DNA from: Eubacteriales bacterium
GTDB lineage: Bacteria > Bacillota > Clostridia > Oscillospirales > CAG-272
Assembly (NCBI GenBank): GCA_045656745.1
Contig: JAZORT010000022.1
Span: 13,784 to 77,783 of the forward strand
DNA length: 64,000 nt
Reading direction: 5' to 3'
The stretch's first letter is position 1; each line of letters begins with the position of its first letter. Below are positions 1,933 through 15,555 of this stretch, one piece after another. The translations under genes were made by a program, and so were the position numbers. The notes beneath the pieces are model-generated. The model was not told the DNA's origin and made no database searches. It worked only from the letters and a program-made list of their open reading frames with translations.

Positions 1933-2720
1933 CTCATTACTCCATTTTCTTTTAAATACTCTACACTGCTTTCAAGTCCCGCGATAGTTTTTACCTCAAT
2001 AAGGCAAGTATCGCCGCATTTTAACATCGAAAGCTTTTCCATAACGCTGACCTCACCCTCGCCGTAAGGAAGATGTGCGCTCTTCCCCTTTGCGTCGTGA
2101 AGATGCATGTGAACAAGCTTTTCGGGATACTCATCAAAGACGTGGCTATCCGTAAATCCAAGGCAAAGCTCGTGTCCCGTATCAAGAGTCAACGCGAACT
2201 TTTCACTCGCCATAAATATTGGAAGAACCTTTAGCTGACTTTCGGTAAAGGGGTTGGAATCAACGTTCTCAATAGCAATTTTGAGAGGCGCGTCACCTAT
2301 CTCTTCTTCACACATTTTAATAAACTGCCTAACTTTATCTATGTAATTATCAAAATAAACATCGCTGAGCAATATCACCTTGCCAGGTAAAGTAACATAA
2401 ACGCCTTTAAGCAAATGCATATTGATAACGGGTATATTTACCTTTTTTGCAAAGCGGATTGTGTCACGCATTACATCAAAATAACATTTTGAAACCATGT
2501 CATTAAAATCGAAAGGATTAAGCATTTCATCCGCGTGGATAGTATAGCTTATGCCGTCCTTTTCGGTTATTTCAATCAACTTTTTTGCATCAAGCGCGCT
2601 CGGCAGATACTGAGGAAAGCTCATATTTATTTCAATAAAATCAAGCCCGTTTTTTTTTGCAACATCGCGGCACTCAAAAATATCTTTACACTCAACAAGA
2701 GTAGGCATTCCGAATTTCAT
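1929..2720 (-). CDS. sugar phosphate isomerase/epimerase (xylose-isomerase-like TIM barrel)
   Basis: The track ORF starts at GTG 2729, but AGGTG-N6-ATG favours 2720 (MKFGMPTLVE). DFIEINM, TLDTGHE and HMHLHD are typical of the family. Confidence 0.7.
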   Translation of the reverse strand: MKFGMPTLVECKDIFECRDVAKKNGLDFIEINMSFPQYLPSALDAKKLIEITEKDGISYTIHADEMLNPFDFNDMVSKCYFDVMRDTIRFAKKVNIPVINMHLLKGVYVTLPGKVILLSDVYFDNYIDKVRQFIKMCEEEIGDAPLKIAIENVDSNPFTESQLKVLPIFMASEKFALTLDTGHELCLGFTDSHVFDEYPEKLVHMHLHDAKGKSAHLPYGEGEVSVMEKLSMLKCGDTCLIEVKTIAGLESSVEYLKENGVMR

Positions 2721-2747
2721 TTTTTTCACCTTAAATGTTTTTTATTT

Positions 2748-2776
2748 ATTTTATCACAAAATCAAGTTCTAGTCAA
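2748..2776 (-). promoter_or_regulatory. sigma-A type promoter of the 2720..766 operon
   Basis: The minus strand reads TTGACT-N17-TAAAAT (plus-strand AGTCAA 2771-2776 and ATTTTA 2748-2753). It lies 12 bp from the insertion boundary. Confidence 0.5.
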
Positions 2777-2787
2777 GATATTTAGGC

Positions 2788-2802
2788 CTAAAAAAGCGCC
2801 CC
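2788..2802. repeat. left copy of 15-bp direct repeat CTAAAAAAGCGCCCC (target duplication or att core)
   Basis: An identical 15-mer is at 15541-15555. The two copies bracket the AT-rich element. Confidence 0.75.
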
Positions 2803-2828
2803 TCTAAAGTTTATAATGTTATTTGCAA
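2803..2828 (+). repeat. left terminal inverted repeat (IRL candidate)
   Basis: TCTAAAGTTTATAATGTTATTTGCAA aligns 16/26 with the reverse complement of 15515-15540. The 11-nt core GTTATTTGCAA (2818-2828) is perfect and sits 15 nt from the direct repeat on both sides. Confidence 0.6.
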
Positions 2829-2866
2829 GGGAATTTCCTTTGCCGATAACATTTTTCTTTTTTCTT

Positions 2867-2884
2867 CCCCTCTGCGCAGAGGGG
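2867..2884. terminator. perfect 18-bp palindrome, bidirectional terminator-like
   Basis: CCCCTCTGCGCAGAGGGG is flanked by a T-rich run upstream and GTGGAAAAAGAAAA downstream, just inside the left end of the element. Confidence 0.4.
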
Positions 2885-3017
2885 GTGGAAAAAGAAAACT
2901 CCCACTTTAGCAAGGGTATAAATTCTTTTTATGCCCTTGCACCCCCTTGATACAATGCCGTATAGGCTTGTAAATATAATTTTATGGCAAATAGCCAAGA
3001 AAGTGAGGCACACTATT

Positions 3018-3248
3018 ATGATGTGTAATCTTTACAAAAAAGAATCGTCCTACAAGGACAAGACTTCGGGAGAGGAGAAAAAGGCAACGAGATTTTACCT
3101 TGAATGCGGTAGCACTCTTGTACCTATTGAGCCTACATACTTTGAGGATCCGCAGACCAAGAGAGATGCACAGTATTCGAGCCGTAAGGCAGTTATGAAG
3201 GCTTTCGCAGCAGACCTTCCCGCAAAAGAAGGCAACGTACACGCATAA
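3018..3248 (+). CDS. hypothetical protein (76 aa)
   Basis: Internal ATG of track ORF 2931..3248, preceded by GTGAGG. MMCNLYKKESSYKD... has no recognisable family. Confidence 0.4.
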   Translation: MMCNLYKKESSYKDKTSGEEKKATRFYLECGSTLVPIEPTYFEDPQTKRDAQYSSRKAVMKAFAADLPAKEGNVHA

Positions 3249-3260
3249 GGGGGTAAGATT

Positions 3261-3467
3261 ATGTTTATCAGACTTCCTACACCCAAAGGTGATTACTGCG
3301 TAAATCTCGCAAAGGTTCTTTTCTTCTATCCTAACAAAGAGTGCACACGTTTTGAAATGGAAGACGGTACAATTATTGACTTCAAGTTGAAGATTGATGA
3401 CGTACTTATACTACTATCTGAAGTAGGTTTCCAAATTCCGCACTACGCAAAAGACGAAGAAAAATAA
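3261..3467 (+). CDS. hypothetical protein (68 aa)
   Basis: ATG with AAGGGGG RBS. No recognisable motif. Confidence 0.5.
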   Translation: MFIRLPTPKGDYCVNLAKVLFFYPNKECTRFEMEDGTIIDFKLKIDDVLILLSEVGFQIPHYAKDEEK

Positions 3468-3473
3468 AAAGTA

Positions 3474-3630
3474 GGTGTAAATGGTGTATTCGGTGTATTT
3501 CACCGAGTACACCGCACGCCAATAAGCTCGGTTGCAATCTAATTAAATATATAGAGGCTATCGGGCGCTGAGGGCTTGTCCAGCGCCTCGGTGTATTGGT
3601 GTATTTGGTGTATTTCTAAAATCCGGTGTA
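3474..3630 (+). promoter_or_regulatory. iteron cluster plus hairpin: candidate double-strand origin / Rep-binding region
   Basis: There are seven direct GGTGTA(TT) copies (3474, 3483, 3492, 3590, 3598, 3607, 3625) and one inverted copy (TACACC 3508-3513). They flank the hairpin GGCGCTG-N10-CAGCGCC (3564-3587), immediately upstream of the rep genes. Confidence 0.65.
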
Positions 3631-3666
3631 AATCCGGTAAAAATACTTTCGCAGGGGGGTAAAAAT

Positions 3667-3999
3667 ATGCGAAACAATAAATCTTTACGAGTTTGTCATA
3701 TCGTCATTCCTGAATGGCGACTTCGTGTTAACATTGAAAAAGTAATAAAGTCAAAAGAATTTATACAGAGATATGTCTGTGTAAAACATAGCGGTGAAAG
3801 CATAGAACCGCATTATCATATTCATTTGGATATGAAACGTAGATTGCCTGTCGTTACTATAGCAAAGTGGTTTGTTCTCCCTACATCATCTATATTCGGT
3901 GTTTATTCTTCTGTTGATGATATTCGGTATATGTTAAAATCCAAAGAAGGTCAAGAAAACACCTTGATTTGTAGTTGCTATGAGAAAAAAGCATTGTGA
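3667..3999 (+). CDS. stand-alone RepB-like HUH nuclease domain protein (110 aa)
   Basis: EPHYHIHLDM (HUH) and DDIRYMLKS (Tyr motif) are paralogous to the N-terminus of the next ORF. GGGGGG RBS. It overlaps the next ORF by 20 nt. Confidence 0.65.
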   Translation: MRNNKSLRVCHIVIPEWRLRVNIEKVIKSKEFIQRYVCVKHSGESIEPHYHIHLDMKRRLPVVTIAKWFVLPTSSIFGVYSSVDDIRYMLKSKEGQENTLICSCYEKKAL

Positions 4000-5134
4000 G
4001 GTAGTTTCTAATGTTTCCCACTTAAAAGTGGATATACAAGCGGTCATACGTTCCAAAAAGTCTATAAAACAATGGGCGTACATACTGCACGATAAAGACG
4101 ATACAGAGCCACATTACCACATATATCTTAACTTCGGTAAAACCTCGGTAGAGTTTGCCGACGTTGCTTCGTGGTTTGGTCTTGACGAAAACTTTGTAAA
4201 CAAGGTCGAAGGCCGTAAGGTAGATATGCTTATGTACCTTACGCATTCGAACGCAGGGCAAGAGCATAAACATCAATACTCACCAAAAGAGGTTGTAGCA
4301 AACTTCGATTTTGAAAGCGAAGTTGCTGTATCTCAAATACTTGGTAATTTTGAGCAGTTTTCTTATGCTCAACAGCTCGAATACATAAACTCGCTTTCGA
4401 TAGAAGAAAAAACGAAAGCACATTCAAAGTTAGACAAGCTCTGGAAGCTTCATTGTCAATGTCTTGTGTTAAAGCCCGACAGACAAATTGAAGTAATGTT
4501 CATTCACGGCAAAGGCGGTACAGGAAAAACCTATTACGCAAAAAAGCTACTTGCAAAAATGGGTTACGATTTCTGTGTTTCCTCTTCCTCGAATGATCCT
4601 TTCCAAGACTACATGGGTCAACAGGCAATTATACTTGATGACTTACGTGACAAAGCATTTGAATTTGAGGACTTGCTAAAGCTCCTTGACAACGATACTG
4701 CATCTTCCGTAAAAAGCAGATTTTCAAACAAGGTCTTCAACGGCAAAATTATAGTAATAACGTCAACCGTTCCTCTTGCCTTTTGGTACAGAGAATATCA
4801 ATACAACAAGTCAGACACCCTGCAACAGTTATACAGACGTATAACATCTTACGTTGTAGTAGACGAACAACACGTAAGTGTGTTTGATGAAATAGACTCT
4901 CGCGGACGTCCCTCGGGGCTTCCAAGAGTATTCAAAAACGAGGTACAACAGTTAAAAAGCCAAAAGCCGAAAAGAACCGACTTCGGGTCGGTCTTCGGTG
5001 AGATGCTCGAAGATGCGTTTCCCTCTTATATCTCCGAAATCGAACGAAAGTTTGATAATACACATTCAATAAAGGAGCAATACCAATGTCAAAAGAACGT
5101 GACCCCACTTCAAAAAAATGCAAACACGGAGTAG
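3980..5134 (+). CDS. rep: rolling-circle replication initiator: pMV158-RepB-like HUH nuclease fused to SF3-type P-loop helicase
   Basis: ILHDKD, EPHYHIYL and MLMYLTHS..KHQY match RepB motifs (LHDKD, HYHVLY, YLYLTHE, KHVY). Further on are Walker A GKGGTGKT, Walker B AIILDD and motif C IVITST. Confidence 0.8.
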   Translation: MRKKHCEVVSNVSHLKVDIQAVIRSKKSIKQWAYILHDKDDTEPHYHIYLNFGKTSVEFADVASWFGLDENFVNKVEGRKVDMLMYLTHSNAGQEHKHQYSPKEVVANFDFESEVAVSQILGNFEQFSYAQQLEYINSLSIEEKTKAHSKLDKLWKLHCQCLVLKPDRQIEVMFIHGKGGTGKTYYAKKLLAKMGYDFCVSSSSNDPFQDYMGQQAIILDDLRDKAFEFEDLLKLLDNDTASSVKSRFSNKVFNGKIIVITSTVPLAFWYREYQYNKSDTLQQLYRRITSYVVVDEQHVSVFDEIDSRGRPSGLPRVFKNEVQQLKSQKPKRTDFGSVFGEMLEDAFPSYISEIERKFDNTHSIKEQYQCQKNVTPLQKNANTE

Positions 5135-5793
5135 AAGACGTTGTATCGGTAGTACTTGCTATAGGAATTAGCGTACTTTCGATAGGTCTTCTCTTCTCAA
5201 TCTTCAAGCCCGGGGACTCGGGCGGTGGCTTTATAATAGCCGAGGGTTCAATAGGCGGGTCTGTAACCGTTGGAGGTCTTCTTGATAAAGAAGAGGACAA
5301 AACAGATGATACCACATCAGACACCGACAATACTACACCCGATACGGATAACAACGGAGCTGACACAGATAACGACACCGGAGAAGGAACTGACACGGGA
5401 AATAATGATAATACAGCCGATACAGATACAACACCCGGTGAAGGTACTGAAAACGATTCTGATACAACAACGGATAATGGAACTACCACAGATCCAGGAG
5501 AAAATGACACCGATCCCGAAACACCATCAGAGGGTGAAACCGTTTCCGAAATTACATTTACTATCGAAGAACTTGGTGATTTTACCGCAACTGAGGGTAT
5601 GACGTGGAGAGAGTGGTGTTCATCAGACTATAATACCACTGATACTATGTGTTCAACTTGGATGTCTAATCCTGAAAAGGAAATAGTAGCTTTTCAGGGT
5701 AATAATGGCTGTCCTCTTTATATGTCCGGTGCTGATGATGTCGAGGTTCATCCTGATGATGTAATTGTATCCGGTGCATCGTATTATCGTTAA
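5086..5793 (+). CDS. membrane-anchored protein with T/D/N/G-rich disordered linker
   Basis: AAAGGAG RBS. N-terminal TM VVSVVLAIGISVLSIGLLFSIF, an acidic Thr/Asp/Asn-rich stretch of about 85 aa, and a Cys/Trp-containing C-terminal domain. Confidence 0.65.
   Translation: MSKERDPTSKKCKHGVEDVVSVVLAIGISVLSIGLLFSIFKPGDSGGGFIIAEGSIGGSVTVGGLLDKEEDKTDDTTSDTDNTTPDTDNNGADTDNDTGEGTDTGNNDNTADTDTTPGEGTENDSDTTTDNGTTTDPGENDTDPETPSEGETVSEITFTIEELGDFTATEGMTWREWCSSDYNTTDTMCSTWMSNPEKEIVAFQGNNGCPLYMSGADDVEVHPDDVIVSGASYYR
5284..5538 (+). repeat. cryptic low-complexity coding repeat (T-D-N-G rich)
   Basis: Degenerate GAYACNGAYAAY-like units encode DTDNTTPDTDNNGADTDNDTGEGTDTGNNDNTADTDTT... Confidence 0.6.
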
Positions 5794-5812
5794 AAATAAG
5801 GAGCAACAACCT

Positions 5813-6031
5813 ATGGCAAAATTCAAAAGCAAATTTTCACGTGCGGAACGGCAAGCTTACCACTCCGGCAAGGGCTATGCCGTAGCACATAGAAAAAGAG
5901 GTATCAACTTTAAGTTTGAGAACCTCAAACGCTCATTTGCAAGAGGCTATAATAAAGGCCTCGAAATGATGAAGCGTAATCCGTTAAAATATGGGGCACT
6001 CCCCAAGAAAACAAGAAAAAAGAGAGGTTAA
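5813..6031 (+). CDS. small highly basic protein (72 aa), possible nucleic-acid-binding
   Basis: AAGGAG RBS then ATG 5813. MAKFKSKFSRAERQAYHSGKGY...KKTRKKRG is rich in K/R. Confidence 0.55.
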   Translation: MAKFKSKFSRAERQAYHSGKGYAVAHRKRGINFKFENLKRSFARGYNKGLEMMKRNPLKYGALPKKTRKKRG

Positions 6032-6037
6032 ACACAA

Positions 6038-6940
6038 ATGAAACGTTTCAGATTTAACAAAATTAAGTGGGACAAGATATTGTCCGCAGCACTTGTAATA
6101 GTGCTTCTTGTCGGCTGTGTAGCCGGACTTGCAGCAATATTCACTAAGAAAACAACCGATGTATCAGACTTCGAATTTAAGAAGGGCGCTCTTGATTCCG
6201 CAGGTTTCTATGTAAAGAGCGATACTTCCATTTACACTAAAGACCTTATCGAATGTCAGGGCCTTGTAATTGAGCCTGACTTCGAGGCAACAGGCGAATA
6301 TCAGGTGTTCTATTATGGCGCAGATAAGGCGTTTATCGGTTCAACAGAAATTTTTGACGCACACCTTGACGGTCTTTATGAAAAAGGTAATACCTTTGCT
6401 TTTGCTAAGTATTGCCGTATTGTAATTTCACCCGATACACCTACCGACAATGACGGTTACCCTGTAGACGATTGGAAGATTCACTTCTGGGATGTTGCAG
6501 GCTATGCAGACGATTACAAGATTTCTGTAAACAAGAAGCAAAAGTTCTCTTTTGAGAAGGCTCTTGAATCTTGCGTAAATGTTGCAAATGTCCTTGGTGA
6601 AGGTGTTTATATGGAAGAATTTGAGTCTGCGGATAGCGGATTGTACTTCTTCGACAAAGTAGATGTTTCAAATGCTAACACCCTTATTATGAAAGTTGCT
6701 ACGGAATCGTTGAAAAATACCGTTACATATAATGAAGTATATGCTTTCCCTATGCTTTATGATGGTGAAGATATGACCGTTCTTAGCAGAGGTGATTTTA
6801 ACGGTAATGTTATTAATTACACTATTCTCGAAAGTAATTCCGAGTTTACTTATATTTCTTACGATGTTTCCGCAATTTCCTCTATTATAGGTTGCGTAGA
6901 TAGCGCTTCTGCTGACATTCTTGAAATCTATGTTCAGTAA
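6038..6940 (+). CDS. putative lipoprotein or signal-anchored protein (300 aa)
   Basis: The N-terminal hydrophobic segment ends in the lipobox-like LLVGC. No recognisable domain. Confidence 0.6.
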   Translation: MKRFRFNKIKWDKILSAALVIVLLVGCVAGLAAIFTKKTTDVSDFEFKKGALDSAGFYVKSDTSIYTKDLIECQGLVIEPDFEATGEYQVFYYGADKAFIGSTEIFDAHLDGLYEKGNTFAFAKYCRIVISPDTPTDNDGYPVDDWKIHFWDVAGYADDYKISVNKKQKFSFEKALESCVNVANVLGEGVYMEEFESADSGLYFFDKVDVSNANTLIMKVATESLKNTVTYNEVYAFPMLYDGEDMTVLSRGDFNGNVINYTILESNSEFTYISYDVSAISSIIGCVDSASADILEIYVQ

Positions 6941-7000
6941 TTACTATTGATTTGTCTTTAATTTTGTGATATAATTAAAGAAAAAAACGGTGATTCAAAG

Positions 7001-7897
7001 ATGAATAATCAATACGTAAAATATACTATAGTTTTTCTTGAAATTATCCTTTTATTTTCTTTAGTTGTATGTTTGCTTCGCTTTAATGGTTCTGTTCCCG
7101 ATGAAGACCTCGGAAGTGATATTACAGATGTTCCTTCCGAGGAACCTTCACCGGATGATAATACTGCCGAAAATCCCGATAATATTCCTTCCGAGGATGA
7201 AAATCCGCCTGTAGATGATGTACCCACAGAGGATATAACACCCACACCCGAGGTTGTAGACTTCTCCAAGATGTCATACGTGGCTTTTGGAGATAGTATA
7301 ACTTGGGGTTGGGTAAATTCTTTGCAAATGGATTTTCCTTATCCTAATTTAGTTGCTGAAAAAATAGGGTTTTCTTCTGTATATAATGCAGGAGTTCCCG
7401 CAGGAACCTTGGGTGTAAATAATGTGGGATTTCCGTGTGTTACAGATGCTATATTAGCATCTGAGGTTCAATACGATATTATCAGCGTTATGCTTGGTGT
7501 AAATGATTATTCCGTATCCGTACCTCTCGGAGATATTGATGATAATACCAAAGATACTGTTTATGGCAGTTTGAATTTAATTGCCGATCATTTATCAACT
7601 TATTCTCGGGATTCTTTTGTATTTTTTATGACTCCATATAAGTGCAAGCTTACTACGGGTACATATAAGAATAAAAACGATGCAGGATATACGCTTGCTG
7701 ACGTTGTAACCGCCATAAAAGAAGTTGCTGCTCTGTACAACATTCCTGTATTGGATATGTTCAACGAGGGACAGTTCGAGAAGGAAATGTATAATTATAA
7801 TAGCGACGGTGTTCACCCCTCGCAAGAGTTCATAAGAGAATATACAGCACCACAAATAGAAGCATTTATAAGACAAAACTATAGTAATAAGAGGTAA
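7001..7897 (+). CDS. membrane-anchored SGNH/GDSL hydrolase (esterase)
   Basis: N-terminal TM, P/E/D-rich linker, then VAFGDSITWG (block I), MLGVNDY (block III) and DGVHPS (block V). Confidence 0.8.
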   Translation: MNNQYVKYTIVFLEIILLFSLVVCLLRFNGSVPDEDLGSDITDVPSEEPSPDDNTAENPDNIPSEDENPPVDDVPTEDITPTPEVVDFSKMSYVAFGDSITWGWVNSLQMDFPYPNLVAEKIGFSSVYNAGVPAGTLGVNNVGFPCVTDAILASEVQYDIISVMLGVNDYSVSVPLGDIDDNTKDTVYGSLNLIADHLSTYSRDSFVFFMTPYKCKLTTGTYKNKNDAGYTLADVVTAIKEVAALYNIPVLDMFNEGQFEKEMYNYNSDGVHPSQEFIREYTAPQIEAFIRQNYSNKR

Positions 7898-7901
7898 AAT
7901 A

Positions 7902-15532: not shown

Positions 15533-15540
15533 CATTCGCA
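15515..15540 (-). repeat. right terminal inverted repeat (IRR candidate)
   Basis: The reverse complement TGCGAATGTCAAGTAGTTATTTGCAA shares the 11-nt core with 2818-2828, at the same 15-nt offset from the direct repeat. Confidence 0.6.
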
Positions 15541-15555
15541 CTAAAAAAGCGCCCC
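15541..15555. repeat. right copy of 15-bp direct repeat CTAAAAAAGCGCCCC
   Basis: Identical to 2788-2802. Confidence 0.75.

Follow-up and report, generated by a model that had tools for sequence, protein, structure and literature searches.

What does a gene for an HUH nuclease joined to a superfamily 3 (SF3) helicase do within an integrated element of a gut bacterium? The question is raised by a 64,000-nucleotide (nt) stretch of contig JAZORT010000022.1 (assembly GCA_045656745.1) from a Eubacteriales bacterium (CAG-272). This whole stretch is referred to here as the window, and all positions are coordinates within it. A first-pass annotation, made from the sequence alone, had described the open reading frame (ORF) at 3980-5134 as a pMV158 RepB-type nuclease fused to an SF3-like helicase, attached to a membrane-protein module in an integrated bacterial setting. 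We find that this gene, rep, very probably specifies the protein that initiates rolling-circle replication of an integrative mobile element, 12.75 kb in length, from uncultured gut Clostridia. The initiator appears to be of the pCRESS7 type, one of the nine groups of bacterial nuclease-helicase replication proteins (Reps), pCRESS1-9, described by Kazlauskas, Varsani, Koonin & Krupovic in 2019 (PMC6668415).

Domains and catalytic residues of Rep

The rep gene (3980..5134, + strand) is uninterrupted, with zero internal stops over 384 amino acids (aa). All motifs quoted in the first-pass annotation were found, in the order and with the spacing that it gave: ILHDKD at residues 35-40, HYHIYL at 45-50, MYLTHS at 85-90 and KHQY at 97-100, followed by the helicase motifs GKGGTGKT (177-184), AIILDD (216-221) and IVITST (258-263). 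Both domains were recognised by Pfam above the curated cut-offs (24.6 bits for PF01719 and 21.5 bits for PF00910). When the whole protein was scanned, PF01719 (Rep_OBD, formerly Rep_2) matched residues 25-111 with 35.7 bits (E 1e-8) and PF00910 (RNA_helicase) matched residues 174-263 with 39.2 bits (E 1e-9). The annotation had proposed that the two halves be searched separately, and this gave the same assignments. Residues 1-165 alone matched PF01719 (37.6 bits, E 2.9e-9) and no other HUH family at E<=0.1, and residues 150-384 gave PF00910 as the best match (35.6 bits, E 1.4e-8), with generic P-loop families next. The C-terminal half did not score as a non-helicase P-loop protein, nor was the N-terminal half placed in a different HUH family, the two outcomes that the annotation had named as contrary to its proposal.

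An AlphaFold2 model of Rep was obtained from 72 diverse relatives, with a mean predicted local distance difference test score (pLDDT) of 90.7. Searching the PDB with Foldseek, the full-length model matched the Vientovirus FB Rep (E 1.4e-10 over 322 columns). The N-terminal half matched the origin-binding domain of pMV158 RepB (TM score 0.67, approximately 20% identity in the structural alignment), and the C-terminal half the Rep ATPase of porcine circovirus 2 (PCV2; TM score 0.71-0.74 and root-mean-square deviation of approximately 2.5 Å, with 8xms at a TM score of 0.74). Further SF3 fold matches were found to adeno-associated virus (AAV) Rep, enterovirus 2C, papillomavirus E1 and the SV40 large T antigen. 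Sequence comparison with the PDB points the same way for each half: RepB (3dkx) was the sole significant family for a profile of the nuclease domain (E 6e-9), and the Reps from viruses of the circular Rep-encoding single-stranded DNA (CRESS-DNA) type, namely Vientovirus and PCV2, were the best matches for the helicase.

These results divide Rep into three parts. The nuclease or origin-binding domain comprises residues 1-112 (3980..4315, +), as delimited by the PF01719 match, the residue alignment with RepB and the RepB fold match. It is followed by a helical linker, residues 113-165 (4316..4474, +), with model helices at 111-118, 129-136 and 141-164. Its position is that of the oligomerisation domain described for CRESS and pCRESS Reps (PMC8780604), and we infer that it is a putative oligomerisation domain. 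The SF3 helicase core spans residues 166-300 (4475..4879, +), on the evidence of PF00910, the alignments with Vientovirus and PCV2, the Foldseek matches and the invariant columns described below. It contains Walker A (G177-T184), Walker B (D220-D221), motif C (I258-T263) and an arginine finger (R286-R287) within the sequence QLYRRIT.

Profile alignment with RepB pairs H39, D42, H55 and H57 of that protein with H37, D40, H45 and H47 of Rep, which are the metal ligands by this alignment. In one detail the first-pass mapping is wrong: it placed the catalytic tyrosine in KHQY. Tyr99 of RepB (LY99LTH) aligns with Y86 of Rep (MYLTH), and Tyr115 (KHVY) with Y100 (KHQY). The nucleophile of RepB is Tyr99, and the role of Tyr115, which forms a hydrogen bond with Asp42, is architectural (PMC5030251); Tarasova and Khayat likewise take the tyrosine of the YLxH motif as the nucleophile (PMC8780604). 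Because Y86 aligns with the RepB nucleophile and Y100 with Tyr115, the catalytic tyrosine is placed within MYLTHS, and Y86, located in helix 80-87 of the model, is the predicted nucleophile, with Y100 as the equivalent of the structural Tyr115.

Conservation was assessed across 72 Rep representatives with a mutual identity of at most 56%. H45, Y86, H89, Y100, G177, G182, K183, D220 and R287 are invariant in this set, and H37, D38, D40, H47, K97, D221, T261 and R286 are conserved in at least 90%. The ratio of non-synonymous to synonymous substitution rates (dN/dS) is 0.08 for the entire gene and 0.018 for the nuclease domain, and rep is thus under strong purifying selection. A total of 1077 homologues were found at E<=0.001 (90% clusters), and 2306 representatives at 50% identity and the same threshold. 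Both precomputed Pfam domains are present in 119 of the 120 homologues among the matches listed, the remaining one having PF01719 only.

At least 114 species-level genomes carry relatives of Rep, and almost all are metagenome-assembled genomes (MAGs) of gut Clostridia (Christensenellaceae, Oscillospiraceae and 'Eubacteriales'). Since the element family is so abundant, its biology matters for annotation of the gut mobilome. Some carrier MAGs (L044, L063-L065, P0152 and P0159) are labelled Corallococcus or Bacteroidaceae, which are probably binning or labelling errors, as with 'Acidiphilium sp. CAG:727'. Annotation of the protein itself is also uneven, with some relatives called 'TsaE' by the Joint Genome Institute (JGI), a P-loop mis-annotation, and others labelled 'hypothetical'.

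A candidate origin and a small HUH gene upstream of rep

A candidate double-strand origin was located between a 68-aa ORF and the rep region. It contains a hairpin at 3564..3587 (+), unique in the window, with a 7-bp stem (GGCGCTG/CAGCGCC) and the nonanucleotide GGGCTTGTC (3572-3580, +) at and within the loop. Folded as DNA, the hairpin has an energy of -9.4 kcal/mol (z -2.35). It is flanked by GGTGTA iterons on both sides: an upstream cluster (3474..3513, +) with copies at 3474, 3483 and 3492 and an inverted copy at 3508, and a downstream cluster (3590..3630, +) with copies at 3590, 3598, 3607 and 3625. Both arrangements are conserved in relatives.

GGGCTTGTC is invariant in 57/57 aligned non-redundant loci, the Reps of which are 52-95% identical to that of the window, and it occurs in 89 of 95 loci, nearly always as a single copy on the rep strand. 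The hairpin stems covary, with 53 distinct arms observed; arms from the same locus pair over 9.7 bp on average, compared with 4.4 bp when the arms of different loci are mismatched. The iterons vary by Rep lineage, the types found being GGTGTA, TGGGCTAA, AAGGTGC/G/A and CGTATAAAA. A rolling-circle double-strand origin would be expected to combine a fixed nick site, a stem with a structural role and repeats that confer specificity. The region shows this pattern and is proposed as a candidate for such an origin.

The hairpin is also found in phytoplasma plasmids. Both pAYWB-II (L093:3743-3773) and pPARG1 (L094:4102-4134) carry GGGCTTGTC as the loop of a hairpin with an 11-12-bp stem, approximately 250 nt upstream of rep and flanked by GTAGTA repeats; the exact nonanucleotide is absent from pCPa (L095), after which the pCPa-like cluster is named. 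The GGGCTTGTC hairpin is common to elements of Clostridia and plasmids of phytoplasmas, although their Reps are only approximately 35% identical, and a defined, testable candidate origin for this Rep group could be useful. Neither pCRESS paper takes up the origin features in its main text (PMC6668415, PMC8780604), older phytoplasma plasmid papers lying outside this search, and a literature search for the GGGCTTGTC string returned unrelated primers and motifs only. A promoter and terminator scan of 2700-5300 found promoter-like sites to be no commoner than in shuffled sequences.

A second HUH gene, ORF110 (3667..3999, +), encodes a helicase-less 'mini-HUH' protein of 110 aa and overlaps the start of rep by 20 nt. 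It is a diverged paralogue of the Rep nuclease domain, with 34% identity to Rep residues 6-95 (E 1e-14), and begins at the ribosome-binding site and ATG that are used by rep in relatives without ORF110. Six database clusters of the protein were found, each exactly 110 aa long. The AlphaFold model (pLDDT 90.9) matches solely the folds of Rep nuclease or origin-binding domains. Equivalents of H37, of the HUH pair (H45 and H47) and of the catalytic Y86 are retained, the last as Y88. The equivalents of the acidic ligand and of H89 are variable, and the region of K97 and Y100 is missing. A comparison with an 80%-identical copy gave a dN/dS of 0.24, as opposed to 0.018 for the Rep nuclease domain; ORF110 is under purifying selection.

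The gene is variably present. Near-identical elements occur with and without ORF110, including a joint of 3658 to 3979 in metagenome contigs (the metagenome evidence in this study consists of joints in the assembled contigs of four runs). With a hidden Markov model of the nuclease domain, 13 of 79 species-level loci (approximately 16%) were seen to have an HUH ORF of 108-145 aa immediately before rep, between it and the origin, and the total rises to 18 of the 90 loci searched once the window and L009-L012 are added. Examples are L009:9688-10020, L010:1578-1910, L026:2415-2747, L038:9968-10306 and L033:9536-9967. In a tree with the Rep nuclease domains, the mini-HUH proteins have very long branches and fall into several groups; they may have had one origin or several, well-supported branches suggesting at least two. 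The main text of PMC6668415 does not mention mini-HUH genes, and no discussion was found in the papers searched.

ORF110 is probably an accessory factor, acting at the origin either as a DNA-binding regulator or in nicking, and translationally coupled to rep. Where ORF110 and rep overlap there is an A6G run, and programmed frameshifting at this run was considered and rejected as a conserved feature: L009 retains the 20-nt overlap but reads ATGCGGAAGAAG at this place, and the frame of rep with respect to that of ORF110 is +1 rather than -1. Translational coupling is likelier than frameshifting because the A-run in the overlap is not conserved. Tyr105 of ORF110 was likewise rejected as a catalytic residue: in a wider alignment it falls opposite the structural F109, and the codon for it overlaps the ATG of rep.

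A more far-reaching reading is that a sizeable minority of pCRESS7 elements has a two-nuclease origin system, in which the fast-evolving mini-HUH protein stands beside Rep as a regulator or second nickase, for example in copy control or in switching from double-stranded DNA (dsDNA) replication to single-stranded DNA (ssDNA) for export by the membrane ATPase described below. We consider this speculative and rather unlikely. Were it true together with ssDNA export, these would be ssDNA viruses of bacteria that have a Rep of CRESS-like type. Repeated emergence of nuclease-only RepB-like proteins from Reps with a helicase would then also be shown, with consequences for the evolutionary direction assumed in 2019. 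It is in addition potentially useful that HUH proteins with and without a helicase occur as natural pairs at a single origin.

The integrated element and the role of its Rep

The rep gene lies in an integrated element of 12,753 bp (2803..15555, +), bordered by a 15-bp direct repeat, CTAAAAAAGCGCCCC, which is taken as the target duplication. The left copy is at 2788..2802 (no strand assigned) and the right copy at 15541-15555; the window contains exactly these two copies, compared with 0.03 expected. A gut-metagenome contig joins 2787 directly to 15541, corresponding to an empty site with one repeat copy and 12,753 bases skipped, and it is this joint that fixes the length of the insertion. No description of the empty site or of a 12,753-bp insertion was found in the papers searched. 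The element consists of small ORFs, the candidate origin, the mini-HUH gene, rep, genes for membrane and secreted proteins, a gene for a transmembrane P-loop ATPase and an IS30-family transposase gene. Relatives keep the order of small ORFs, rep, a small basic protein, secreted or anchored proteins, the 750-aa ATPase and a right-end IS30 transposase, and are found at differing chromosomal sites. The direct repeat, the empty-site contig and the gene order together bear out the first-pass proposal of an integrated rep attached to a membrane-protein module.

The transposase gene (14426..15532, +) encodes an IS30-family DDE enzyme, as judged by an HTH_38 match of 29.0 bits (cut-off 27) and a weak rve match, and recurs at the right end of related elements. 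It is likely the integrase of the element. HUH enzymes are themselves known to act as transposases, integrases and relaxases, as set out in PMC10288648, and no tyrosine or serine recombinase was found in the element by Pfam scans. Rep could on these grounds be suspected of being an HUH transposase or integrase in the style of IS91, Helitron, Replitron or AAV Rep, or else a conjugative relaxase. However, the 15-bp target duplication, the IS30-family transposase and short terminal inverted cores that are visible in the end sequences of the element constitute the signature of DDE rather than HUH transposition, and the Rep hairpin is single and internal instead of lying at the element ends. A relaxase is contradicted by the Rep-class nuclease (PF01719) and by a helicase of SF3, not superfamily 1 (SF1). 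For either role, the closest relatives are replication proteins of small phytoplasma plasmids. We consider it extremely improbable that Rep is a transposase, integrase or relaxase.

A reading that leaves the role of Rep as initiator unchanged, and differs in what becomes of the product, is that it serves a non-lytic ssDNA phage, filamentous or pleomorphic, the membrane proteins and ATPase of which export or wrap ssDNA circles. The element encodes a 750-aa polytopic membrane protein with a P-loop ATPase (10554..12806, +). Of 80 related loci, many of them truncated at contig ends, 36 have a homologue of this protein downstream of rep, and secreted or anchored proteins are also conserved. Pfam and PHROG scans found no conjugation, capsid, portal or terminase genes in the element. 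Language-model neighbours of the ATPase include Zot-bearing clusters with scores of 0.81-0.83, which we take as a lead, and a putative inovirus Rep family with an S3H helicase has already been catalogued (Roux et al. 2019, PMC6813254). The element's GDSL/SGNH esterase, which is membrane-anchored (7001-7897), matches PHROG tail-fibre and virion structural families (E 1e-18 to 1e-21). Against this, the ATPase has no Pfam Zot match at E<=1, and neither it nor the other module proteins has a PHROG match. A search of IMG/VR with close-relative patterns found no relative, a result that is uninformative on distant ones, and Kazlauskas et al. (PMC6668415) detected none of the known virion proteins in pCRESS elements. 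The phage reading is possible, although we doubt it.

For Rep as a rolling-circle initiator, the following sequence of events is proposed. The IS30-family transposase would excise the element as a circle, on which Rep would bind the lineage-specific iterons and extrude the hairpin. It would then nick the + strand in or beside GGGCTTGTC, with Y86 as the nucleophile and a metal ion held by H37, D40, H45 and H47, and remain covalently bound to the 5' end after the cut. The SF3 helicase of Rep, as a hexamer, would open the duplex for the host polymerase, where RepB instead borrows the SF1 helicase of its host. After one round, Rep would cut and rejoin at the regenerated hairpin, freeing circular ssDNA. 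These circles may be either reconverted to dsDNA, as in a plasmid, or exported through the membrane module in a phage-like manner.

Certain observations weigh against this account. GGGCTTGTC is unlike both the nick sequence of pMV158 and the CRESS nonanucleotide. In motif C, Thr263 occupies the position of the sensor-1 asparagine (ITST, compared with ITSN in PCV2), and atypical sensor-1 residues have been reported for pCRESS7 (PMC8780604). The assignment of Rep as pCRESS7-type was made by its nearest named relatives rather than by a tree with the reference set. Finally, no circular junction was seen among the joints listed from the contigs of the four runs, so that episomal replication of this copy is a prediction.

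The last point could also be taken to mean that Rep is a relic, in an element that moves only as a large IS30-type transposon and in which rep and the origin are non-functional. Most copies are indeed integrated in long contigs, and internally deleted derivatives of 2.2 kb exist. A relic is nonetheless difficult to reconcile with a full-length Rep in which all catalytic columns are intact, with the dN/dS of 0.08 and with retention of rep in at least 114 species-level genomes. It also sits poorly with an origin whose loop is invariant and whose stems compensate across Reps 52-95% identical to that of the window, and whose iterons track the Rep lineage. We regard a non-functional Rep as very unlikely, and the initiator as the far better supported role.

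A number of further observations were made on the element and its relatives. Apart from rep, the most widely conserved gene is an accessory one, the small ORF at 2931-3248 upstream of the origin (approximately 76 aa in relatives), which 53 of 80 loci have and for which no family match was obtained. Contigs of two metagenomes lack 201 bases at 10218-10420, between direct-repeat copies 201 nt apart (families D10 and D17); this length polymorphism sits in the long non-coding gap between the gene for a 470-aa protein and that for the ATPase. The 2.2-kb derivatives (L011:1-2193 and L012:1-2108) are represented by 7 contigs from several samples and equal window positions 2955-4125 joined to 14715-15525. 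Both retain the left part, the origin, ORF110 and approximately the first 48 codons of rep, joined to the transposase gene's 3' two-thirds, and may be non-autonomous mini-elements. Two Reps with identical scores lie approximately 14 kb apart on the Christensenellaceae contig CAJUSA010000004.1 (L027/L028), which may represent tandem elements.

A related element is present in the cultured mouse-gut isolate Pumilibacter muris CLA-AA-M08 (L090, NZ_CALPCN010000001.1:42098-63162), with a Rep 59% identical to that of the window, the same hairpin loop, CGTATAAAA-type iterons and an ATPase homologue. This cultured carrier is a possible experimental system for replication, excision and any extracellular form.

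Comparison with known replication systems

The first-pass annotation had held the nuclease-helicase fusion relevant to the evolutionary link between plasmids and ssDNA viruses. This relevance is already in the literature, since both the YLxH supergroup of pCRESS Reps, whose architecture is exactly that of Rep, and an integrated element of the same family, AciCAG-E1, were published in 2019. The YLxH signature is common to pCRESS4-8 and to the helicase-less Reps of pE194 and pMV158 (PMC6668415). With YLTH (Y86-L-T-H89) and a nuclease followed by an SF3 helicase, Rep belongs to the YLxH supergroup as defined there. The fusion and the element family have been known since that year, the latter as an 'integrated plasmid', and Rep is a textbook pCRESS7 protein. 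The fusion as such contributes no novelty to the plasmid-to-CRESS-virus account; what merits specialist attention is the origin motif, together with the tandem mini-HUH gene.

Compared with pMV158 RepB (PDB 3DKX, 3DKY and 8AMT), Rep has the same PF01719 nuclease, with counterparts of the metal ligands, Tyr99 and Tyr115. The nick-site sequence of pMV158 RepB is unlike the GGGCTTGTC origin of the element. The general layout of the origin is nonetheless similar, pMV158 having a nick-site hairpin and direct repeats (PMC5030251, PMC1851628). As the annotation had stated, classical RepB is without a helicase: it is a protein of 210 aa consisting of a nuclease and a C-terminal hexamerisation domain, has no ATPase and depends on an SF1 helicase of the host (PMC5030251). 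Because residues 166-300 form an SF3 helicase, Rep is not a classical RepB, even though its nuclease belongs to that family.

Reps from CRESS-DNA viruses (PCV2, 7LAR and 8XMS; Vientovirus FB, 9PQQ and 9PQJ) share with Rep the three-part layout and the origin logic of a stem-loop with iterons, and that of PCV2 has the identical arginine-finger context LYRRIT. They differ in motif III, which is YxxK in place of YLxH, and in the origin loop, which is NANTATTAC in place of GGGCTTGTC. Unlike the viruses, the element has a bacterial host, is likely integrated by a DDE transposase and contains no capsid gene match. With no capsid or virion family match, a 12.75-kb integrated form, the YLTH motif and the GGGCTTGTC loop, it falls outside Cressdnaviricota. 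The putative inovirus Rep family with an S3H helicase, iPF_00203 (Roux et al. 2019, PMC6813254), offers a bacterial parallel, compared here by description: these inoviruses likewise combine an HUH and SF3 Rep with a membrane ATPase of the morphogenesis type. The ATPase of the element differs in having no Zot Pfam match and in the N-terminal position of its membrane domain. A tblastn search of a phage collection gave weak matches to the nuclease domain only, in small 'Dulem/bajarodino' virus records.

The closest named relatives are found among plasmids. In a set of 72,556 plasmids, among which pMV158 (NC_010096) is not included, the top 18 matches to Rep are all phytoplasma plasmids. Identity is 34-37%, with 78-91% of the query covered, for the Reps of p09PLY-2, pAYWB-II, pPARG1 and pCPa; those of Staphylococcus plasmids come next, at no more than 29% identity. 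The plasmids p09PLY-1/2, pPARG1 and pAYWB-II/IV are placed under pCRESS7 in the table, tree labels or accession lists of PMC6668415, and the order of nuclease and SF3 helicase and the YLxH motif III are common to pCRESS7 and Rep. In contrast to the element, the phytoplasma members are free plasmids of 3-5 kb with copy-control and single-stranded DNA-binding protein genes and no membrane module; the element for its part has the additional mini-HUH gene.

The nearest counterpart of the element as a whole is AciCAG-E1, also listed under pCRESS7. It comes from a gut MAG, 'Acidiphilium sp. CAG:727' (FR898463:2638..14917), with the Rep CDE19587.1 (PMC6668415, Supplementary Table 1). Neither CDE19587.1 nor any other pCRESS reference accession was found among the database relatives of Rep. 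Comparison with the sequence printed in Supplementary Data 3 of that paper revealed long identical blocks, with approximately 61 of 84 nuclease-core positions identical by manual count. Like the element in the window, AciCAG-E1 is of similar length (approximately 12.3 kb), intergenic, flanked by a short direct repeat (16 bp) and equipped with an integrase annotated as IS30 family (PMC6668415).

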